Below are positions 7,909-32,024 of a stretch of DNA of 39,681 bases, piece after piece (position 1 is the first letter of the stretch; each line of letters starts with the position of its first letter). Under the pieces are notes generated by a model. The model ran no database searches. It was given only the letters and a program-made list of their open reading frames with translations, and was not told where the DNA came from. The position numbers and the translations under genes were made by a program. Source of the stretch: a virus (lineage: Duplodnaviria > Caudoviricetes); the IMG/VR virus record IMGVR_UViG_3300033067_000700, positions 1 to 39,681 of that record; one strand, written 5' to 3'.

Positions 7909-8199
7909 TTAACCTTTCATTCCTATAATACGAGTTATATACAAAAGTTCGTGTAGATCTATATATACTTCTTTTTCTGTTTCGCTTCCGCTATCTATCG
8001 TGATGCGAAAAATATCATCTTTTACTGCTTGCTCGTTTAGTTCCCAGTCAAGACGTACTTCATGGTTGCCTGATAAATCAGTGAGATACCCAACACCATC
8101 TCGTATAAGATCAGTAACTTTTGGCTTGTTGCGAAGGTTTGCCATAGATCTTGTAGCAGATCCAGCTCCTAAGCCACCACTTACTGCTCGACTAGACAC
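7909..8199 (-). CDS. Hypothetical protein (96 aa)
   Basis: ORF overlapping the end of groES, with GAAAGGA upstream. Confidence 0.6.
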   Translation of the reverse strand: MSSRAVSGGLGAGSATRSMANLRNKPKVTDLIRDGVGYLTDLSGNHEVRLDWELNEQAVKDDIFRITIDSGSETEKEVYIDLHELLYITRIIGMKG

Positions 8200-8435
8200 A
8201 AGATGTCCTTTTCTCGGATCAACTTCACGTTCTTATCAGATGTGTCTTGTACTGCGTAAGCATTAAACGTAACCGTTTGGTTTACATCAATAGAACTTAC
8301 AAGTGGACCTTTAGCTAATACCTTGCCTACATTCTTTGGCTTTTCCCATTGAGCCTGAGCTTTGTAAAGCCCCCCAACGGTTTTCTCTTCTTCAACAATT
8401 ATTTCTATTACGACTAGATCTCTTAGTGGTTGCAT
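8181..8435 (-). CDS. groES: Co-chaperonin GroES (Cpn10)
   Basis: MQPLRDLVVI start, mobile loop EEEKTVGGLY, GKVLAKGP and C-terminal LIREKDIL match the Cpn10 pattern. Confidence 0.9.
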   Translation of the reverse strand: MQPLRDLVVIEIIVEEEKTVGGLYKAQAQWEKPKNVGKVLAKGPLVSSIDVNQTVTFNAYAVQDTSDKNVKLIREKDILCLVEQ

Positions 8436-17080: not shown

Positions 17081-17425
17081 TTATTGCAACAGTCTGTTTT
17101 TCTTCTCTTCGGCACGTTGAGCGTAGTGCTTACGCAACACCTTCTGTACCTTCTGAGTTGAGTTAAACTCAGTAGCAACCATGTGCCCTTCAAGTTCGGC
17201 GTATTGGCGTTGCTTGTTCTTCCACTTGCGACCATTAGGTAGTTTTCGGCGTTTCTTTGTAAACGGCTTATCGCTTACTCGCCCACGACCAGGAACAGTA
17301 CTATCGCTGCCCCATTCAGATTTATAGGTATCGTGAATAGCCTTACGAGTTCGGCGGTGTCTGAACCGCATCTGCTCATCGTTTTCTAAAGTCATTGCAT
17401 CTTGCAAAGATAGTCCCCTACCCAT
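17081..17425 (-). CDS. Basic hypothetical protein (114 aa)
   Basis: TAATG-coupled to groEL; R/K-rich. Confidence 0.65.
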   Translation of the reverse strand: MGRGLSLQDAMTLENDEQMRFRHRRTRKAIHDTYKSEWGSDSTVPGRGRVSDKPFTKKRRKLPNGRKWKNKQRQYAELEGHMVATEFNSTQKVQKVLRKHYAQRAEEKKNRLLQ

Positions 17426-18993
17426 TACTGTCTAGCTCCCATAATTAAGTTCATTTCTTCTTGACTTACTTTTTCTTCAACTATCGCACCGCCAACCGTA
17501 ACTGCAAGTCCAGCAGTCGTAAGCGAGTTACGAACTACCTCACAGGTAACGATCATCGGGTCAATAATTCCAGCTTTAAGGGTGTCTACTTTCTCACCAG
17601 TCGCTACGTCAATTCCTTCGCCATGCTTAAACTTATCAACATTGAGGTTATAGCCTGAGTTTTCAAGTAGTATTTCAAACGGTAGTGTAAGCGTGTCGAG
17701 TACCCACTGAGTATCAGCAATCGGCTTAAGCTCATTTGCTATATCTCGTAAGGTAACACCACCACCAGCGACAACACCACCCTTAAGGGCAGCACGAACA
17801 GCATTGATCGCATCGTCCACTCGGTAGCGTTTCTCTTTAATTTCACTATCAGTCGCACCACCAATCTTGATCACACCAACACGACCTTCAAGGGTAGCAA
17901 TTCGTTCACGCAACATTTCTTGTTTTGTGTCGCTTGCATCTTCAACTTGGTTTTTAAGCGTATCAACACGATTTGCAACATCTTCTTCAGCACCCTTACC
18001 ACCGATAATGATAGTATCTTCCTGTGCTACGACAGTCTTATCAGCAGCACCAGCGTAACTAATATCGAGGTTGTCTTGCCAACCAGCAAGGGTCATGTCA
18101 ATCAGCTTACCGCCTGTGAGAATTGCAATATCTTCTAACTGCTCAACTCGGTTCTGATCGTAACTCGGACCTTTAACGACAACGGTGTTCAACACACCCT
18201 TCACCTTATTCAAGATAAGCGTGTTCATCGGATCAGCCTCAACCTTGTCAGCAATAATCATCAGAGCTTTGCAGCCACTTTGAAGGAGGGGGTCAAGCAC
18301 TCCCTTAAAGTCCTCAAGATCTGTGATCGTACCATTAACGGCAAGGATCGCAGTGTTTTCAAGAATTGACTTGCGAGCGTTCTGATCAGTAATAAAGTAC
18401 GGCGACATAAAGCCTTTTTCAAAAGCATAGCCTTCAACAACTGAGCTTTCATCTTCTAATGCCTGAGTATCTTCAACGGTGATCGCACCATCAAACCCTA
18501 CCTGTTCCATCACATCAGCAATAAGTTTAGCGAGTTTTGGATCGCCACCGACTGAGATCTTAGCAATGTTTTCAACATCAGCGTGAGTTTTACGGATCTG
18601 TTTTGCTTGAGCTTTTACTGCCTCAGTGAGCGGTTTAATGTACGCATCAAGTTCACGCTTAACGACCATCGGGTTAATACCTTTATCAACCTGTTCCATC
18701 GCAGCCTTGATAAGATGGTAAGTCAGGATCGTAACAGAAGTTGTACCGTCCCCTACCTCGTCCATCTTCGCACTTGCCTCTTTCACAAGATCAACACCAA
18801 TACTTTCAGGATCGTTCTCAAGTTTAACCGCACGAGCTACCGTAACACCATCATGAGTGATACTAAACGCACCAAACTTATCTTTGATCAAAACGTTTCG
18901 CCCTTTTGGTCCGAAAGTCGTCTTGACTGCATCATAAATAATTTCAGCACCCTTTAGTACGTTCGTTCGTGTTTCTTGGTCTTTAGTGATCAT
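17425..18993 (-). CDS. groEL: Chaperonin GroEL (Cpn60)
   Basis: TFGPKGRNV, ITHDGVTVA, GDGTTS, KGFMSPYF, ERIATLEGRVGVIKIGG, DDAINAVRAALKGGVVAGGG and GIIDP; no GGM tail. Confidence 0.97.
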   Translation of the reverse strand: MITKDQETRTNVLKGAEIIYDAVKTTFGPKGRNVLIKDKFGAFSITHDGVTVARAVKLENDPESIGVDLVKEASAKMDEVGDGTTSVTILTYHLIKAAMEQVDKGINPMVVKRELDAYIKPLTEAVKAQAKQIRKTHADVENIAKISVGGDPKLAKLIADVMEQVGFDGAITVEDTQALEDESSVVEGYAFEKGFMSPYFITDQNARKSILENTAILAVNGTITDLEDFKGVLDPLLQSGCKALMIIADKVEADPMNTLILNKVKGVLNTVVVKGPSYDQNRVEQLEDIAILTGGKLIDMTLAGWQDNLDISYAGAADKTVVAQEDTIIIGGKGAEEDVANRVDTLKNQVEDASDTKQEMLRERIATLEGRVGVIKIGGATDSEIKEKRYRVDDAINAVRAALKGGVVAGGGVTLRDIANELKPIADTQWVLDTLTLPFEILLENSGYNLNVDKFKHGEGIDVATGEKVDTLKAGIIDPMIVTCEVVRNSLTTAGLAVTVGGAIVEEKVSQEEMNLIMGARQ

Positions 18994-19634: not shown

Positions 19635-19993
19635 TTGTTCCTCACAATCAAGTTCACATCACCAAGACGAGTATCTTGAATATCATCTATTGCAATAATC
19701 TTTGCATACTTCTTTCGTAGCTCAGTATGTTCTAACTTCGAGTGATACTTCACTCCATCAGGATCAGGTACAACTCTTTCAGTTATGGTTCGAGCATAAT
19801 TCGCCCCACCACCAGACCAAACAATAACATCAACATTCTTCCACTTTTGAGCAGCGAACACAGAGATCATAGTACTGATAAGAGTAAACGTCCCTTCGCC
19901 ATCAATAAGAGTGCCGTCTACATCAAAACAAATAGCCACTTTTTCCATGCCATCGCCAAACGGTAAACCTAGTTCTTCATTCTTACCCATCAC
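19631..19993 (-). CDS. Minimal HAD-superfamily phosphatase
   Basis: Motif I FDVDGTL, motif II WSGGG, a Lys, and motif IV IAIDD. Confidence 0.8.
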   Translation of the reverse strand: MMGKNEELGLPFGDGMEKVAICFDVDGTLIDGEGTFTLISTMISVFAAQKWKNVDVIVWSGGGANYARTITERVVPDPDGVKYHSKLEHTELRKKYAKIIAIDDIQDTRLGDVNLIVRNK

Positions 19994-20364
19994 GCTTCCT
20001 TCTCTCGACCACTGAGGCTATTAACGTAAGCCTGTTTGTTGCCGTCCCATTGCCAATGCTTACAGGGGCGAACACCTTTGCAACACTGCAACTCCCCAGA
20101 CGGATCAACACCAGCCTCTTGCCAGTTAGTAGTTTCCGCTTGCGGAAAAGAATTATTTTTTTGGGGCGTATGTAACTGAACTACGTTGCCTGGTACTTTA
20201 ATTTTTTCAATATCTTTAGGGTCGATGAAACCAACCTCTGTGTACCCTTGTGGGGGTATAAGCCTACGAACAGCATAGTCTTGCATCGTCATTCTAGCCG
20301 TTGCTGCACCTGTCTTGATTAACTGGTGCTGTTCCTCAGTAAGTTTGATATGTAATATCTTCAT
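19990..20364 (-). CDS. Putative ribbon-helix-helix DNA-binding protein with C-terminal Cys/His motif
   Basis: MKILHIKLTEEQHQLIKTGAATARMTMQDYAVRRL fits a strand-helix-helix pattern; C-terminal CCKGVRPCKHW. Confidence 0.6.
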   Translation of the reverse strand: MKILHIKLTEEQHQLIKTGAATARMTMQDYAVRRLIPPQGYTEVGFIDPKDIEKIKVPGNVVQLHTPQKNNSFPQAETTNWQEAGVDPSGELQCCKGVRPCKHWQWDGNKQAYVNSLSGREKEA

Positions 20365-21249: not shown

Positions 21250-21305
21250 TTGACAATATAGAAATGGTTTGCTATTATAAGAGAGTAAACATGAAAGGAA
21301 CTAAC
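21250..21305 (+). promoter_or_regulatory. Early sigma70 promoter plus conserved leader GAAAGGAACTAAC
   Basis: TTGACA(21250)-17-TATTAT with TG extension; 13-mer at 21293-21305. Confidence 0.85.
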
Positions 21306-21308
21306 CAC

Positions 21309-21500
21309 ATGCAATCATCAATAACTAATAAAAAGGTAATCAATACACTTGTTAATGCAGGTTATGGATCAACATCACTTGCATACATACTTTGCGAGCT
21401 TGAAGATCACCCGACACAACGAGAGTTTATCTTGTGTTACTGGTTGAACAAAAGTGCAGAGAGCCAGATCGTTAAAGAACTATTAAAGGAACTAGCATAA
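21309..21500 (+). CDS. Hypothetical early protein (63 aa)
   Basis: Start moved to ATG 21309 behind the conserved RBS. Confidence 0.65.
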   Translation: MQSSITNKKVINTLVNAGYGSTSLAYILCELEDHPTQREFILCYWLNKSAESQIVKELLKELA

Positions 21501-22249
21501 TGACACAGCAAGAAATAACCTATAAAGCACTTATTGATCAGATGCTTACATTTGAAGGATCAATGACAGATACTTACTCACGCTTTTATAATTACAGTTA
21601 TTACAATATGGCGTTGCTTTACTATCAAGGCGTTAAAACACCAGTTGCCACCTATAAGAAATGGCTTGAACTTGGACGACAAGTGCAAAAGGGATCTAAA
21701 GCTAAAGTTATCTGTATGCCTCGTATGTATAAGAATGAGGACAATGAAACAGAAATAGCTGGCTTTTCACTTCGCCCGACAGTGTTTGAATACTCACAGA
21801 CTGACGGTGAAGAACTTGAAATGCCACAGCCTAAGACTTGGCACATCTTAACCGCTACCGAAAAGCTAGGCATTAAAGAAGTATCTTACAATGCTTTACT
21901 AGGTAGCAATGGGAACGCTCAAGGCTACAGCATTAAGATGGAATATGCAGTAAGCCTGATGGCTAAATATCCTCTTAAGACCACACTTCATGAGATCGCT
22001 CATATCGTACTTGGACACACCACAAGGGACACGCAAGACGAAGAACACTCAGGCATCAGAGAGTTTCAGGCTGAGGCTACCGCTTACCTAGTCATGAAAG
22101 AACTCAAGATGACTAAGTGCATGAACGAAGGCGAAAGCCGAGCCTATGTGCAAAATTGGGTAAAGGGTACTCAGATCGAAGAGAAAGACCTTAAGCAAGT
22201 ATTCACAGCAGTAAACAAAATCATTAACGCAGGAAGGGAAGAGGCGTAG
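21500..22249 (+). CDS. ArdC-like protein (N-terminal ssDNA-binding domain plus zincin-like HExxH domain)
   Basis: YSYYNMALL...VATYKKWLELGRQVQKGSKA...VFEYSQT matches the ArdC N-terminal domain; TLHEIAHIVLGH...EFQAEATAY...Y..NW. Confidence 0.8.
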   Translation: MTQQEITYKALIDQMLTFEGSMTDTYSRFYNYSYYNMALLYYQGVKTPVATYKKWLELGRQVQKGSKAKVICMPRMYKNEDNETEIAGFSLRPTVFEYSQTDGEELEMPQPKTWHILTATEKLGIKEVSYNALLGSNGNAQGYSIKMEYAVSLMAKYPLKTTLHEIAHIVLGHTTRDTQDEEHSGIREFQAEATAYLVMKELKMTKCMNEGESRAYVQNWVKGTQIEEKDLKQVFTAVNKIINAGREEA

Positions 22250-22275
22250 AGCCTCAACCCTCGAAAGGATCTAAT

Positions 22276-22479
22276 ATGAAAAGCTATAAAGTCGGAACAC
22301 ATATCAACCTTAAAAAGAAAGATCATACTAAGTTATATATCTTCTTGGCAGGTGTAGCCGTTGCTTTACTCGCCCCCTTCTTGATTGATTGGGTATTGTT
22401 TGGAACGCCCACGCCTTGCCACACTGTAAAAGTATATGAAGATGGCTCAAGCCTTCAGGCTTGTAAGGTAAGGAACTAA
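22276..22479 (+). CDS. Small membrane protein (67 aa)
   Basis: Transmembrane segment LYIFLAGVAVALLAPFLIDWVLF; RBS GAAAGGATCTAAT. Confidence 0.7.
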   Translation: MKSYKVGTHINLKKKDHTKLYIFLAGVAVALLAPFLIDWVLFGTPTPCHTVKVYEDGSSLQACKVRN

Positions 22480-22480
22480 T

Positions 22481-22699
22481 ATGATCACACTTAAACGATA
22501 CAACGAGCAGAGCTTTACTCAAGCCGAAGAAGAGGCAGTGAACGCCCTTCACGACAATTTGACAGAGTTCTTTAAGGCTATGGGCTTTGAAGATGAAACG
22601 ATAGACTATGCCACCGAAGATCTGTATAACTTCCTTGATCCGAACATGGCTAAATATATAAAGTTTAATAATTCTGTAAAGAAACGCTTGACAAAATAG
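22481..22699 (+). CDS. Hypothetical protein (72 aa)
   Basis: RBS AAGGAACTAAT. Confidence 0.7.
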   Translation: MITLKRYNEQSFTQAEEEAVNALHDNLTEFFKAMGFEDETIDYATEDLYNFLDPNMAKYIKFNNSVKKRLTK

Positions 22700-22741
22700 A
22701 CCGAGCTTGCTATACTGAAAGAGTAAAAGAAAGGAACTAAC
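22688..22741 (+). promoter_or_regulatory. Early sigma70 promoter plus conserved leader GAAAGGAACTAAC
   Basis: TTGACA(22688)-17-TATACT with TG extension; 13-mer at 22729-22741. Confidence 0.85.
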
Positions 22742-22978
22742 ATGAACCGACAAGATAAAGCCGAGCTACTAGCAGATATTTGCGTGGAGCTTGCAAAACG
22801 AGAAAAGGCACAGCGTGGCAATGGTTGGCACGAGCTTATGGGAGTATCACAAGATCTTCTAGGCTTAATGATACAACGCCGACACCACGACAACGGCGAA
22901 ACATCTGTAGTAGTTTATGACAGCGTGGACGATTGGAAGAACAACCGAGAGCCACTTGTAGTGAGGAGTGAGCAATAA
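22742..22978 (+). CDS. Hypothetical protein (78 aa)
   Basis: Directly behind the promoter and conserved RBS. Confidence 0.7.
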   Translation: MNRQDKAELLADICVELAKREKAQRGNGWHELMGVSQDLLGLMIQRRHHDNGETSVVVYDSVDDWKNNREPLVVRSEQ

Positions 22979-23820: not shown

Positions 23821-23950
23821 GGTATTACAGAACACACTTATATTTTCAGGCATCGCACTATTTTTCATCACTTGGGGAGTAGTGAGTTGGTACATAGATA
23901 AACGAAAGGAAAAGAACAATGGCAGGACGACCAAAGCAAACGCAAGCTAA
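23813..23950 (+). CDS. Small single-pass membrane protein (45 aa)
   Basis: GTG start; LIFSGIALFFITWGVVSWYI followed by basic residues. Confidence 0.5.
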   Translation: MSEVLQNTLIFSGIALFFITWGVVSWYIDKRKEKNNGRTTKANAS

Positions 23951-24134
23951 CTTAGCAGCACTTAAGAAACTCGATAAACTTGAAACACCTATCGTAACAG
24001 TACGACCATTGATCGCTTATATCATGCGTGAGAGTGATTGCACCCTTCAAGAGATCGCAGACGTTTTTAACGTATCACGCCAACAGGCAGAAAATATCTA
24101 CAATAAAGCGAAAAGGGAACTAGGTGGTGAGTAA
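23919..24134 (+). CDS. Helix-turn-helix DNA-binding protein (sigma70 region 4-like)
   Basis: TLQEIADVFNVSRQQAENIYNKA. Confidence 0.8.
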   Translation: MAGRPKQTQANLAALKKLDKLETPIVTVRPLIAYIMRESDCTLQEIADVFNVSRQQAENIYNKAKRELGGE

Positions 24135-24636
24135 AACAGCAACAGCAGTCATATCATTTTTTATTGGTATGGGAGTAATCGTAGTCGGGCTAACTCTTGG
24201 AGTAGCATTGATCGTTAATGGCATAAGTGAACGAAAGACTTTTGTTATCGACAAAGAGTGGACCGTTGCAGTGAATGAATACCGTAAGCAAAACAATGTT
24301 GAACCAGTAAAAGAGGACTACTTTTTGAACACGCTCGCAGCAGCGAAATGCGATGATATGGTTGAACGTAACTATTACAGCCACTATGATCCTGATGGTA
24401 AGCGTATTGATGCACTAGCGATGAAACTATACTCATTTGATCTTAATAAAGAGGCTTGGGCTGAGAACATACATAAAGGTGCAATATATACGTCAAGTAA
24501 AACAATGCTCGATTGGTATAATTCGCCAGAGCATAGAAAAGCCATGCTTGATCCAGTTTATACACGAGTTGGACACGCTCAATGTTATTCAGGCAGCAGT
24601 TATACAATGGTGGAGGTTTTTACCGATGAATACTAG
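24124..24636 (+). CDS. Membrane-anchored CAP (SCP/PR-1) domain protein
   Basis: N-terminal transmembrane segment; VNEYRKQN, DMVERNYYSH, AENI, WYNSPEHRKAMLDPVYTRVG and VEVF. Confidence 0.88.
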   Translation: MVSKTATAVISFFIGMGVIVVGLTLGVALIVNGISERKTFVIDKEWTVAVNEYRKQNNVEPVKEDYFLNTLAAAKCDDMVERNYYSHYDPDGKRIDALAMKLYSFDLNKEAWAENIHKGAIYTSSKTMLDWYNSPEHRKAMLDPVYTRVGHAQCYSGSSYTMVEVFTDEY

Positions 24637-24970
24637 CATACCAGCAGAGCCGTTTGATCCTAAGACATTTGAGGATCTTGTGTTTCTGATGGACAAGACT
24701 GTTGAAACTCTGAGCAATAAATATCAGATGAGCGAAATGGACAGCATGATCCTAGTCAATACTTTTAAGATGGCTTGTGGTGAATATCACCGTATGGTTG
24801 AAGAAGGACTTGTGCCTTTTCAGTTTCAATACCGCCGAGATAAACCACGACAAGTTGAACATAATTTGACCGACATCAGTTTGTGTATGAGTTGTTTTGC
24901 TATGACACACTCAGTCGATATTAACGGAAGATTGTGTTGCGGTAAGTGCAAAGAATTAAAGCAAAACTAA
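24626..24970 (+). CDS. Hypothetical protein with C-terminal Zn ribbon (114 aa)
   Basis: Start at ATG 24626 behind GGAGG; CMSC...CGKC. Confidence 0.65.
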   Translation: MNTSIPAEPFDPKTFEDLVFLMDKTVETLSNKYQMSEMDSMILVNTFKMACGEYHRMVEEGLVPFQFQYRRDKPRQVEHNLTDISLCMSCFAMTHSVDINGRLCCGKCKELKQN

Positions 24971-25035
24971 AAGCAGAGGCGAAGAGAGTTGAAAGGAACT
25001 AACTTAAAACTTCTTGTGTGCCTCTGCTTTTATTA
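24966..25035 (-). ncRNA. Candidate ~70-nt anti-RBS sRNA (sRNA-1); the hairpin also acts as a bidirectional terminator
   Basis: TGTTATAAT at 25050-25042; perfect 13-bp stem 24968-24980/25020-25032; loop contains GUUAGUUCCUUUC; ends in a U-tract. Confidence 0.6.
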
Positions 25036-25065
25036 CTATACATTATAACAGATATGTGGAAAAGT

Positions 25066-25512
25066 TTACAGAGAACGCTTTAACTTTTTATATTTTATCA
25101 ATCTTTTAGTATCCCACCGACCATTTTTATCAAGCATATTGTACTCACGCAACACACCGAAAGCAGTCTCTAAAGTTGATAGCCCACCGCTCGTATATAC
25201 TCCAGGCTCTGGCTCGTAACCCCACTGATAGATAACTTCCATAGCGAAGTCAAGCATCTCACGGTTGCGTGGAACCGAGATCTCTGGCGTAAGCATAAAG
25301 TCTTCTATCAGCTTCCTAGTCTCTTCGACCGCTTCGCTACGATCATTCGCTGAGTTGCCTATCTCAAACATTTTGTTCATCATCTGATTAGCAACTCGTG
25401 CATACGTCCTGGTTGCTATACGTTGCTCTTCAGTTAGTAAACTTTTCATGCTACCCCCTTCTAAGGTTTCACTTTTATTTGTTAATCGTTTTTTATAATC
25501 TTCGTAATTCAT
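25066..25512 (-). CDS. Hypothetical protein (start uncertain: 25512 or 25449)
   Basis: Lone minus-strand ORF inside the early arm, downstream of a long non-coding region. Confidence 0.65.
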   Translation of the reverse strand: MNYEDYKKRLTNKSETLEGGSMKSLLTEEQRIATRTYARVANQMMNKMFEIGNSANDRSEAVEETRKLIEDFMLTPEISVPRNREMLDFAMEVIYQWGYEPEPGVYTSGGLSTLETAFGVLREYNMLDKNGRWDTKRLIKYKKLKRSL

Positions 25513-25549
25513 ACTCACCAACCCCCGACTGCTTCGCTGTGCTCGCAAT

Positions 25550-25990
25550 CGTCCCCATGCTTGGGGAGATTATAGTTTATTATTTATAGATTATAGTATT
25601 GCTTTATATCGGACAGGAGAGGAGAGGACACAGCCCCCCCTACCCCCCACCAGTTTTTCTGATGAGTAGGTAGGAGGAGCGGTATAAGCTATCGGCTCAG
25701 TGTCGGATCGGCTTACATGGTAGTTACCCCTCGCACCCCTGCGTTATCACTACCTACATCTACCCTCACTTACGCCACTGACATTTGATACTGTGTACCC
25801 GTCCTGTATAACGATCCCTATTGGACTTTGTGAATTGAAGTGTTGCAACTTCTCTACTTACGTTGGTAAATGTACCCTGACAACCCCTTGTGAATTGTAG
25901 TTGTCTTTGCTATCATAACACTGTGAATTGTAGTGAGGCAATAGCCTATCTCGATAAACATTGAACCGCCCCTGTTGGCGGTTTTTTGTT
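25550..25990. other. Large non-coding region; putative replication origin / regulatory RNA locus
   Basis: AT-rich patch 25570-25608, C7-TA-C6 tract 25634-25648, three TGTGAATTG repeats, overlapping divergent promoters; adjacent to the helicase operon. Confidence 0.45.
25964..25987 (+). terminator. Intrinsic terminator
   Basis: AACCGCC-CCTGTT-GGCGGTT-TTTT. Confidence 0.8.
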
Positions 25991-26012: not shown

Positions 26013-26066
26013 TTGAAAAATCAAGCCATTTTTGCTATACTATCAGCAGCACAGAAAGGAACTAAC
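26013..26066 (+). promoter_or_regulatory. Promoter plus conserved leader GAAAGGAACTAAC
   Basis: TTGAAA(26013)-17-TATACT with TG extension; 13-mer at 26054-26066. Confidence 0.8.
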
Positions 26067-26072
26067 AAAATA

Positions 26073-26348
26073 GTGCTTAGACCAACGGCATACCAGACGT
26101 TTGATGAATTGAGGGACTTTTACCTTGATTATATTCGTGTCAATCGTGAGGTTATGAAGGCATTAAAAGGCGGTATAGATCGCAGCAGTGATATACAATT
26201 TAAGAAAGATTGCTGGGAAAGCATACACATCACTCAAGAAGAGAATAAGCGTATCTATGAAGAACTGAAAGAGTGTCAGCGTTGGTGGATTAAAGATGGT
26301 AAATCTAAATACGAAGAGAGGGTAGAAAAAATAAATGGCAGGATCTGA
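26073..26348 (+). CDS. Hypothetical protein upstream of the helicase (91 aa)
   Basis: GTG start at 26073 behind the conserved RBS; the track's upstream start runs through the promoter. Confidence 0.65.
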   Translation: MLRPTAYQTFDELRDFYLDYIRVNREVMKALKGGIDRSSDIQFKKDCWESIHITQEENKRIYEELKECQRWWIKDGKSKYEERVEKINGRI

Positions 26349-27291
26349 TTATTGGAAAAAACGCTTTAAGGGCATGGAAGATACTGAGTTTCAGGAAGTT
26401 GAAAAGGCAGTTATCGAACGAGGGGCAGAAAGTGATATTGCAGAGCCGAACGATGGTTTGATTAGCATTGACGATATTGCAGACGATATTAAAGAAGAGT
26501 TTGAAAGTTGGGGCAAAGTACGAGGCTTACGATCAGGCTACACCACCCTAGATAAAAAGCTAGGCGGAATGGGTGAAGGTCATGTGATCCTTATTGGTGG
26601 TGAAACCAGTAACGGTAAATCAGCACTCGCCACTAACATTGCGGTCAATGTCGCAAAGACCGATCCAGTGCTATACATCACACTTGAGATGCAAGCAAAA
26701 GAGATCGGTAGTCGCATCATGCATATCTACGGTGAGAACGTGGGTGATCTTCAGATGCTATTTCAATCACAGTTTAGGCTTACCTATAAAGACGTAAAGC
26801 CTCTTCTTAAGAACGCTATGGAATATGCAGGGATCAAGCTCGTAGTATTGGACTACCTTCAATACTTAGGGCGTGGTATGAAAATGGAAGAAGTAGCGAT
26901 CATGAGCAAGGAAATGAAAACGCTCGCCCTTGAGTTTAATATACCTTTTATAGTGATCGTATCACTTCGTAAGGCAGAGCAGGGCAAAGGTAAACGCAAG
27001 TGGACCGATATTGAGATTGAAGATCTTATGGGTACTGGTAGCATTGGCTATGATGCAGATGCAGCAATTATTGTAAGCCGTAAGGATCTCAACAACGAGT
27101 ATGATGAGGACAATGTATATGTGAAGATCCTCAAAACTCGTAACGCTCGCTTGGACTACACTGATCGTTATGTTGCACTTAAATGGGATCGCACTCGTAT
27201 CACTGAGGACTTTGTTGAGGCTATCAACTCAGGCAAAGACGAAGGCTGGGAAGAGGCAGGAACACAGCAAAATATGCTTGACAAACACTAA
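26335..27291 (+). CDS. dnaB: DnaB-like SF4 replicative helicase (C-terminal ATPase domain only)
   Basis: SGYTTLDKKLGG, Walker A GETSNGKS, TLEM, VVLDYLQ, KTLALEFNIPFI, GTGSIGYDAD and KTRN. Confidence 0.92.
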   Translation: MAGSDYWKKRFKGMEDTEFQEVEKAVIERGAESDIAEPNDGLISIDDIADDIKEEFESWGKVRGLRSGYTTLDKKLGGMGEGHVILIGGETSNGKSALATNIAVNVAKTDPVLYITLEMQAKEIGSRIMHIYGENVGDLQMLFQSQFRLTYKDVKPLLKNAMEYAGIKLVVLDYLQYLGRGMKMEEVAIMSKEMKTLALEFNIPFIVIVSLRKAEQGKGKRKWTDIEIEDLMGTGSIGYDADAAIIVSRKDLNNEYDEDNVYVKILKTRNARLDYTDRYVALKWDRTRITEDFVEAINSGKDEGWEEAGTQQNMLDKH

Positions 27292-27334
27292 TTCGTTTGT
27301 TATGATGGGTACATCAAAGCAGAAAGGAACTAAC
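27278..27334 (+). promoter_or_regulatory. Promoter plus conserved leader GAAAGGAACTAAC
   Basis: TTGACA(27278)-17-TATGAT with TG extension; 13-mer at 27322-27334. Confidence 0.85.
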
Positions 27335-27335
27335 T

Positions 27336-27518
27336 TTGAAAAAGAATATTAAAGTAACGTTTTACGAAGAACTAAAAAAAGGCACAATCGTTAGAGCTAT
27401 CGCAACAGGTATTGGCACACACCCTTTTCTTGTTGTTCGTGATGATCAACCGATAGGTACGTTCGCTACTGTAACAAACATAAATGGAAAGACATATCTG
27501 GTATGGGATCAGGTATAA
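27336..27518 (+). CDS. Hypothetical protein (60 aa)
   Basis: TTG start behind the conserved RBS. Confidence 0.6.
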   Translation: MKKNIKVTFYEELKKGTIVRAIATGIGTHPFLVVRDDQPIGTFATVTNINGKTYLVWDQV

Positions 27519-30043: not shown

Positions 30044-30268
30044 ATGAGTGATTTAACATTCGGACAAAAAGCTATGGGTGTAAAGTTTAACCCATCTGGT
30101 GATGAAAAAGTTGCACGATTAAAAGAGCTGTTTGCTGAAGTAGCAGACATCTTGAACGATGATCGGGGTGATAATCGTGATGAACGTGCAAGGCTGGCAT
30201 CGGTGGTGATCACTGAGGCTCAGACTGCTCAAATATGGGCTGTTAAAGCCGTAACATACGAGAGGTAG
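30044..30268 (+). CDS. Putative Acb2/Tad1-like helical-hairpin protein
   Basis: FNPSGDEKVARLKELFAEVAD...RLASVVITEAQTAQIWAVKAVT pattern. Confidence 0.55.
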   Translation: MSDLTFGQKAMGVKFNPSGDEKVARLKELFAEVADILNDDRGDNRDERARLASVVITEAQTAQIWAVKAVTYER

Positions 30269-31197: not shown

Positions 31198-31254
31198 TTG
31201 ACATTCTATACCACTTATGCTAATATAGAATAGTCATAAACGAAAGGAACTAAC
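31198..31254 (+). promoter_or_regulatory. Promoter plus conserved leader GAAAGGAACTAAC
   Basis: TTGACA(31198)-17-TAATAT with TG extension; 13-mer at 31242-31254. Confidence 0.8.
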
Positions 31255-31257
31255 AAA

Positions 31258-31491
31258 ATGACTAAAGAAACAACTAACTCCCTTGAGGAGTACAAGACAA
31301 GTGTCTTAAAGCGAGAATATCGTTATAAGATCGGTATCACAGCAGTATTAACCTTTATGGCATCAATCACTGTTGGACTGATCGTAGGCTACTTTTGGGC
31401 AATCGGTATCATCACTGATAGCCAGAGTAAGGCAATGAACGTCATTACTTCTGTTAAAGAAACAGCAGAAGTAAAAACACAAGCTCAGTAA
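31258..31491 (+). CDS. Single-pass membrane protein (77 aa); zero-frame product of a predicted frameshift gene
   Basis: Transmembrane segment IGITAVLTFMASITVGLIVGYFWAIGII. Confidence 0.75.
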   Translation: MTKETTNSLEEYKTSVLKREYRYKIGITAVLTFMASITVGLIVGYFWAIGIITDSQSKAMNVITSVKETAEVKTQAQ

Positions 31492-31899: not shown

Positions 31900-32024
31900 A
31901 AACAAAAACACTCCCTTTCTAGGTAAGACGGTGGAGGGTAGAAACCATCTTACAGGAGTGTTAATGCCTAACATAAGTTAGAAATAGGGGGTATAAGGTA
32001 CTCATTTGACGCTAATCTAATGAT
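31900..32024 (-). ncRNA. Candidate ~125-nt sRNA (sRNA-2) with a loop antisense to the dnaB RBS
   Basis: TTGACA(32059-32054)-17-TACACT(32036-32031); nested hairpin 31907-31962 ending in a U-tract. Confidence 0.5.

Follow-up and report, generated by a model that had tools for sequence, protein, structure and literature searches.

A 13-nt sequence forms the ribosome-binding site (RBS) of the lead gene in each of five early operons of a phage genome, and a sixth copy lies within a hairpin with no gene behind it. What is this sixth copy for, and on which strand does it act? An earlier note, made from the DNA alone, had proposed that a trans-acting minus-strand RNA silences the early operons through the shared tag. 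Here we weigh this proposal against its rivals.

Source phage and its probable host

The window analysed is a viral record in its entirety (39,681 bp; CheckV completeness, 93%). It carries minus-strand arms with terminase, portal-like, capsid, GroEL/GroES, and lysin genes, and a plus-strand block (21.2–31.5 kb) with ArdC-like, HTH, CAP, DnaB-like, nuclease, Acb2/Tad1-like, RusA, and HNH genes. A close cultured phage was not found, the best matches in phage collections being ~30% (DnaB and TerL) and 39% (GroEL); metagenomic homologues numbered 430 for DnaB and 472 for TerL. The phage was contained in 21 runs (18 wastewater, one aquatic, and two unlabelled). On indirect evidence, its host probably belongs to the Saccharimonadales: one DnaB contig lies inside a Saccharimonadales MAG (another in a Gracilibacteria MAG), TerL contigs occur in 5/401 Saccharimonadales-order genomes (one of the five unpublished), and a 32–35 bp host intergenic site is common to the phage window. 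No CRISPR spacer linking phage and host was found, and the short host matches G202, G095, and G196 were ruled out as spacers.

The earlier note had recognized neither a CI-type repressor nor an integrase. Indeed, neither was found among the 55 phage proteins scanned, where the one phrog_1 match fell on a 78-aa AP2/HNH-like ORF, but the note had left unmentioned two candidate DNA-binding transcription regulators, namely, an RHH-like (ParD/NikA) protein (19990–20364) and a small, sigma-region-4-like HTH protein (23919–24134).

Several other features of the genome deserve mention. GroEL (17425–18993) and GroES (8181–8435) are both encoded in this 40-kb phage, and in the relatives G002 and L134 GroEL is located in the early block instead. 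The ORF-free region 25550–25990 before the helicase operon, with its three TGTGAATTG repeats and, at 25888, a promoter-like site, is a possible origin. Between the convergent early and late arms, a site at 31938–32002 (TGGAGGGTAG ... CCTAACATAAGTTAGAAATAGGGGGTATAAGGT) matches a single host intergenic site with 79–97% identity in 16/401 Saccharimonadales-order genomes; the host site is upstream of a ~285-aa gene, DprA-like by our reading, often followed by a topoisomerase-like gene. One arm of the phage site resembles the XerD half of dif, and via this site Xer could integrate the phage or resolve dimers with no integrase involved; the site had no tRNA or Rfam match and was absent from the related phage loci searched. 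A fluoride-riboswitch match at 2886–2973 was rejected because it scored below the gathering cut-off (29 versus 34 bits) and lies within a long minus-strand ORF at the left end.

The RBS tag and the five early operons

A genome-wide count bore out the description of the tag given in the earlier note. Thus, GAAAGGAACTAAC occurs exactly six times, always on the plus strand (21293, 22729, 24991, 26054, 27322, and 31242), and three further copies with two mismatches start at 21484, 22263, and 22468, the same sites as the near copies previously placed at 21485, 22263, and 22470. These nine matches at ≤2 mismatches compare with a mean of 1.29 and a maximum of 5 in shuffled sequences, none of 100 shuffles reaching nine. 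Each of the five gene-linked copies is followed by an ORF start and serves as RBS for the gene that comes first after a full sigma-70 promoter, TTGA(C/A)A-17-TG.-10; the promoter arrangement claimed before was found in 5/5 cases. In all five leaders (promoters at 21250, 22688, 26013, 27278, and 31198), the tag lies 12–16 bp behind the −10 box, and the leaders are common over 13–15 nt only, differing outside the promoter hexamers and the tag.

On the plus strand, early promoter 1 with its tag (21250–21305; tag, 21293–21305) precedes an ORF (21309–21500) that abuts the ArdC-like anti-restriction gene (21500–22249). The three near copies belong to the genes that follow in this operon, 21484–21496 being the RBS of the ArdC-like gene, 22263–22275 that of ORF 22276–22479, and 22468–22480 that of ORF 22481–22699. 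Early promoter 2 (22688–22741; tag, 22729–22741) stands before ORF 22742–22978 and drives an operon of small ORFs, the HTH gene, and a CAP-domain membrane protein gene (24124–24636), ending at the hairpin. Early promoter 3 (26013–26066; tag, 26054–26066) precedes ORF 26073–26348, overlapping the DnaB-like helicase gene (26335–27291), and early promoter 4 (27278–27334; tag, 27322–27334) precedes ORF 27336–27518 in an operon with HIRAN/PD-(D/E)XK nuclease, Acb2/Tad1-like anti-defence (30044–30268), RusA, and HNH genes. Early promoter 5 (31198–31254; tag, 31242–31254) is located before ORF 31258–31491. Late RBSs, already said to fit poorly, match the tag over 5–9 nt, the best being that of GroES with 9 nt.

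A hairpin behind an antisense promoter

As the earlier note had described, the sixth tag copy has no ORF behind it and is flanked by perfect 13-bp arms (24968–24980 and 25020–25032). The resulting hairpin starts 9 nt after an extended −10 box of the minus strand, TGTTATAAT (25042–25050). On the minus strand, the 5′ arm of the closing stem is 25020–25032, and the 3′ arm, 24968–24980, is followed by a U run and overlaps the stop codon of the last plus-strand gene of early operon 2. Between the arms, 24991–25003 reads GUUAGUUCCUUUC, the exact complement of the tag and a putative seed, whose pairing reaches 14–15 nt on two leaders. The predicted sRNA would span 24962–25035 on the minus strand (~74 nt), its ends being placed ~7 nt behind the −10 box and within the U run. 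At the sequence level, the locus has its own promoter and no ORF. A minus-strand ORF of 149 aa (25066–25515) ends just upstream of this promoter, and the hairpin could be the 3′ end of its mRNA as well; the ORF had no tblastn match in 35 related loci, and an atlas search gave nothing usable. A scan of both window strands for a −10 box, a closing stem, and a CC-containing interior returned this locus only, and Rfam gave no match here at E ≤ 1.

The hairpin is more stable than shuffled sequences on either strand (z, −4.8 for minus and −5.9 for plus), with fold energies in the window of −24.5 for minus versus −28.7 for plus. The long minus-strand hairpin of the earlier note is thereby upheld as to stability, but its open loop is not the lowest-energy state: a weak 3-bp helix closes the loop and leaves 7 nt, and this helix must be opened, at a cost of 3.0 kcal/mol, to display the tag complement in a 17-nt loop. 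The −35 element is unusable (best 3 of 6 in the window; best 2–3 of 6 over the window and nine relatives, a comparison that leaves out L109), and late promoters score 2–4 of 6 and early ones 5–6 of 6. The lack of a −35 element, as in late promoters, fits late or steady accumulation of the RNA, a timing predicted from promoter class only. All 21 runs consist of contigs, and the eight examined have a flat depth across intergenic DNA that may represent DNA and is blind to strand, ends, and level. A DnaA-box-like TTTTCCACA beside the sRNA promoter was discarded as evidence, six being present in the window versus 5.25 expected.

Conservation of the unit in related phages

Relatives were collected by alignment searches with DnaB and TerL (18 + 80 viral and 50 metagenome loci; 23 viral records fetched, some partial). 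The unit of promoter, hairpin, and anti-RBS loop recurs in 12 lineages of a probable Saccharimonadales phage family, with a single hairpin in G001, G004, G006/G007, G024, L106/L120, L107, L108, L109, L111/L112/L129, L122/L131, L126, L127, L136, and L156. A variant that is longer and has two hairpins, a −10-like box, and a CCUUUC loop is present in G002, L138, and L133–135, and in looser forms in L114 and L115; it maps to L023:8655–8775, L138:1092–1212, L134:9015–9125, L114:8990–9090, and L115:1235–1350 and has a second conserved loop motif, GCCCACC. Among the 23 related viral records, the unit or the variant was found in only six; the unit was undetected in the remaining 17 and in L118, L121, L123, L132, and L145. 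Where the flanks are known, it usually stands last in an early operon, 0.7–1.4 kb upstream of dnaB, and in G001 unit and operon both have the reverse orientation with respect to dnaB.

Most elements were located through GAAAGG. A scan of 141 loci for a −10 box, a stem, and an interior matching RBSs gave four matches, all of them this element. The exact stem pattern had no match in viral contigs, and single-protein locus searches with DnaB and HTH yielded none that could be confirmed. A pattern scan with TGAAAGGAACHA..ATTATA returned 120 loci, nearly all by chance, with hairpins in G001, L282, L330, and L327. The last three (L282:10001–10050, L330, and L327; other viral contigs, one of 112 kb) have a similar −10 box and hairpin with a GTTCCTTTC loop, but were left uncounted because L282 matches one RBS only, over 10 nt, in 20 kb.

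The closing stems consist of 6–13 Watson–Crick pairs with sequences unrelated between elements. Because they differ in both length and sequence, RNAalifold on a MAFFT alignment gave no consensus structure; hence there is no covariance model, and stems were compared individually. The promoter is what distinguishes the strands: a −10 box 5–14 nt from the stem scores ≥6 on the antisense strand in 12/14 elements (14/14 at ≥5) and on the sense strand in 0/14, against a background of 1.6%. The antisense box is also present in 6/6 single-hairpin elements found by stem alone. Fold energy does not choose the strand (antisense more stable in 6/14, sense in 8/14), nor do U tails, present on either side (11 versus 9 of 14), L126/L127 having none on the minus strand. 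Moreover, close strains retain the hairpin and TG.TATAAT despite changes in both flanks, namely, a ~210-bp extra segment at 24964, just before the hairpin, and an upstream flank that changes at 25047 or 25068.

Co-variation of loop and tag

The earlier note had proposed examining in relatives whether the loop and the RBS motif change together, and they do. The loop follows each phage's own tag: the window has GAAAGGAACTAAC in loop and leaders, G001 and L112 have GAAAGGAACTAC, L136 has TTGAAAGGAACTA(TCG), L109 has TGAAAGGAACAA, G004 has GAAAGGACA, G006 has (C)GAAAGGAT, L108 has GGAACGCAAAA (in a single leader), and G024 has AAATAACTGGAGG (in two leaders). When leaders were called automatically (10 lineages), the mean shared length between loop and promoter-proximal RBS was 9.56 for own pairs versus 8.03 for foreign pairs (permutation p = 1.2e-4), and the duplex energy −24.3 versus −20.2 (p = 4.5e-5). 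With hand-picked leaders in 12 lineages, the values were 10.96 versus 7.98, and 0/300,000 permutations reached the observed sum (p below 4e-6). Since the lineages are related, these p values overstate independence, and the result rests on about four independent changes of the core.

With the hand-picked leaders, the phage's own RNA was the best or tied in 9/12 lineages. Co-variation failed in L106, where the loop GAAAGGAACA mismatches the leaders GAAAGGAACT, and in L127 and L122, where loop and leaders match over 8–10 nt only. A conserved hairpin with an unrelated loop, named beforehand as counterevidence, was absent among the single-hairpin relatives. The cleanest case is G024, which was found independently of the window motif, has no DnaB match and a TerL identity of 44%, and carries a different replication module and tag, matched by its loop over 13–14 nt. 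The unit turns up in at least three DnaB clades and on each of the two deep TerL branches; G004 is sister to G006. In phages with at least two leaders called, leader uniformity (mean pairwise match) was 10.1 with the unit (n = 8) versus 4.3 without it (n = 11; p = 4e-4), L118 being a counter-example with a uniform tag and no element in the 14.9 kb available.

Predicted targets and resemblance to the 16S rRNA tail

The five tagged leaders rank 1–5 of 54 genes by duplex energy and again 1–5 of 38 genes with opening costs included (net, −13.4 to −17.6 kcal/mol). The near copy of the ArdC-like gene is the sixth-best predicted target (−12.6 kcal/mol), and GroES is the best late gene (−10.1 kcal/mol). 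Plain co-folding produced no seed pairing; as it cannot form loop duplexes, it was replaced by the opening-energy calculation, which predicts an accessible seed (opening, 3.0 kcal/mol) complementary to translation starts elsewhere.

In 4/4 Saccharimonadales-order genomes read, the 16S 3′ tail is GGAUUACCUCCUUUCUA, and the sRNA loop (GUUAGUUCCUUUC) is identical to this tail (AUUACCUCCUUUC) at 10/13 positions. The likeness makes the tag a Shine–Dalgarno core with a private extension. On the tagged leaders, the predicted duplex is about −21 kcal/mol for the sRNA versus −10 to −12 kcal/mol for the 16S tail. Hfq was found in 0/151 genomes of the likely host order, as was CsrA.

Proposed mechanism

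Collectively, these comparisons lead us to regard 24962–25035 as probably the gene for a ~74-nt minus-strand trans-acting antisense sRNA that would pair with the early-operon tag and jointly block translation. The trans-acting RNA of the earlier note thus gains support, at the level of prediction, from the strand-specific promoter conservation, the co-variation, and the target ranking. Host sigma-70 polymerase would initiate ~7 nt past the extended −10 box and terminate at the stem and U run, and the paired ends would stabilize the RNA. The loop would then base-pair over 13–15 nt with the RBS tag heading all five early operons and, being 16S-tail-like, would out-compete 16S rRNA on the tagged leaders. 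Hfq may be dispensable, presumably because a long perfect loop pairing needs no chaperone, and a block at the lead cistron would be polar on coupled genes (ArdC-like and DnaB-like).

If such an RNA is made, its most likely role, somewhat more probable than the others together, would be to shut off the anti-defence and replication operons with a delay, as its level rises; alternatively, it may hold down lytic genes in a carrier state or confer superinfection immunity. The early-to-late or carrier-state switch of the earlier note is a prediction from the promoter class only.

Alternative explanations

Could the hairpin be nothing but a bidirectional terminator, for operon 2 on the plus strand and the 149-aa ORF on the minus strand, with its tag copy a relic of a lost gene start and the tag a strong extended Shine–Dalgarno sequence? 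Its start coincides with the stop codon of the last plus-strand gene, T runs flank it on both sides, and in the window it folds more stably as the plus strand; part of the tag is plain Shine–Dalgarno sequence, and the 16S tail AUUACCUCCUUUCU can pair with its GAAAGGA and UAA. However, with an interior of 39 nt the loop is far larger than that of an intrinsic terminator (a short GC stem with a 3–8 nt loop), the locus is absent from the terminator scan list although U runs are present, the 149-aa ORF is not conserved, and no orphan copy has a start codon behind it. Nor would a relic explain the antisense −10 box at a fixed distance in 12/14 elements, or a tag that changes beyond 16S pairing and yet is followed by the loop. 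We therefore judge this explanation unlikely; a terminator function on the plus strand can coexist with the sRNA role. The earlier note itself had offered a decoy for an RBS-binding protein; here, the plus-strand copy, 3′-terminal in the early mRNA, would titrate a tag-binding protein (a phage translational repressor or activator, or a CsrA-like protein). Co-variation is equally expected for a protein site, and the sense fold, the more stable one in 8/14 elements, displays the GGA core in its loop. This alternative has nonetheless lost ground and appears quite improbable: there is a single site, a plus-strand promoter is found in 0/14 elements, the antisense −10 box is left unexplained, CsrA is missing from all 151 genomes, and no RNA-binding regulator is seen among the 55 proteins scanned, though most small ORFs are without a family.

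The regular spacing of all five leader copies, 12–16 bp behind the −10 box, and the presence of candidate DNA-binding genes would also suit a DNA operator just downstream of the early promoters, the sixth copy controlling the minus-strand promoter or acting as a sink for a phage repressor (the RHH protein, 19990–20364, or the HTH protein, 23919–24134). Against this, the tag is non-palindromic, single, and centred on the Shine–Dalgarno sequence; a stem that varies in sequence and is conserved in pairing around the sixth copy has no place in it; and RHH occurs in lineages without the unit while HTH is missing from G004/G006, which have it, making an operator very improbable. Finally, the RNA might be made and yet act elsewhere, its 16S-like loop mainly hitting host mRNAs in a translation shut-off, or it might be a long antisense transcript into early operon 2, as the elements without a U tail would allow. 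The loop tracks the phage tag rather than a constant host sequence, and GAAAGGAACT stands before ATG only twice in five host-order genomes versus 21–37 times per genome for AAAGGAG, so that we give hardly any weight to this possibility.

Comparison with known regulatory RNAs

Among phage antisense RNAs, c4 of P1/P7 has the antirepressor operon as its target. It is a phage-encoded RNA of ~77 nt that acts in trans via its loops and partly occludes an RBS, changes together with its target between P1 and P7, and consists of three stem-loops cut from a precursor by RNase P (PMC5320573). The predicted sRNA likewise has a loop that is complementary to the target RBS and co-varies with it, but forms one long hairpin with the promoter directly before the stem, and its tag is on every early operon. 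The Rfam model of C4 antisense RNA had no match at the locus (E ≤ 1) and none at the gathering score in five relatives, and membership in that family was rejected on this ground and for the single hairpin in place of three with a′ and b′ loops; the predicted sRNA works like c4 and is not a member. In satellite phage P4, the lysogeny/immunity factor is a small RNA, CI, in place of a repressor protein; it acts on its own operon leader by premature termination, whereas the predicted targets here are five separate RBSs. Csr/Rsm protein-sequestering RNAs have several GGA loops; with one GGA loop and no CsrA in the 151 genomes, an RNA of this type was ruled out.

The PeSL of T4-type phages are homologous, recombining promoter–terminator cassettes with stem-loops (PMC2839356), and resemble the present locus in their repeated early promoter cassettes and stem-loops. 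A PeSL cassette was ruled out since the leaders share 13–15 nt only and the hairpin is single and antisense. Phage sRNAs that, like the predicted one, repress translation or steer development by base pairing include the cis-encoded, single-target sar (P22) and OOP and aQ (lambda), and the Hfq-dependent PreS, VpdS, and DicF, which mostly hit host genes; in the consulted part of the source, none of these is directed at a tag common to the early operons of the phage itself (PMC12197685).

Parallel with start-associated sequences

Start-associated sequences (SAS) are 13-bp RBS tags of non-structural genes in cluster K mycobacteriophages and cluster EF Microbacterium phages, conserved beyond 16S pairing and often behind a promoter (PMC3203893, PMC11373665, PMC7302621); their role is stated as unknown from 2011 to 2024 (PMC3203893, PMC11373665). 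The window tag shares with SAS the length of ~13 bp, the position at RBSs of non-structural genes, the single orientation, and the conservation beyond Shine–Dalgarno, but its sequence, GAAAGGAACTAAC, is neither the K consensus GGGATAGGAGCCC nor the EF consensus GGGAAAGGACCCC. Pope and coworkers described in 2011 four K1 phages with one geneless SAS copy in the opposite orientation (PMC3203893). In Anaya, CrimD, AlishaPH, and Enkosi, we found this orphan copy to be the loop of a hairpin with paired stem changes, which would read as anti-SAS on the plus strand (L331:31871–31883 in Anaya, L332:30836–30848 in CrimD, and L333–L336), in a conserved, structured intergenic region behind a TAGACT −10-like box. 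The gap holding it is conserved in 193 records. Late transcription of Adephagia starts between genes 92 and 93 (2024; PMC11373665), a gap that, by synteny, we infer to be that of the orphan SAS.

The cluster K hairpin differs from the present one in lying within a longer RNA behind a plus-strand promoter-like site, with another sequence and in unrelated phages. Co-variation failed in cluster K: in Ellie and Bryler, the SAS is kept and the loops have drifted to partial complementarity. Best-match searches of Hurricane, Omnicron, AlleyCat, and Nibb gave no K-type hairpin, and the orphan copy was absent in 49 of 56.7 kb of AnnaSerena. The K1 anti-SAS hairpin is a culturable lead, not support for the sRNA reading.

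Implications

It is conceivable, and we put it forward tentatively, that phages build RNA-addressed regulons, in which every early lead gene bears a private Shine–Dalgarno extension and one chaperone-free 16S-mimic RNA is the off-switch for the class, the pair being re-coded jointly and having arisen more than once, with the K1 anti-SAS late-leader hairpin as a second case. In the mainly open-access literature consulted, we found no account of this RNA or of an anti-SAS RNA. If true, RNA-addressed regulons would explain SAS and provide an early-gene off-switch or immunity system without a repressor protein. In phages of Saccharibacteria, where neither Hfq nor CsrA was found in the host-order genomes, it would be a regulatory RNA; it would also offer a compact programmable part, with one 74-nt RNA and one 13-nt address to co-repress several operons. 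How early genes are shut off in phages without a repressor or their own polymerase is poorly known, and this locus, whose tag and antisense loop have changed together in evolution, gives a specific, testable answer.
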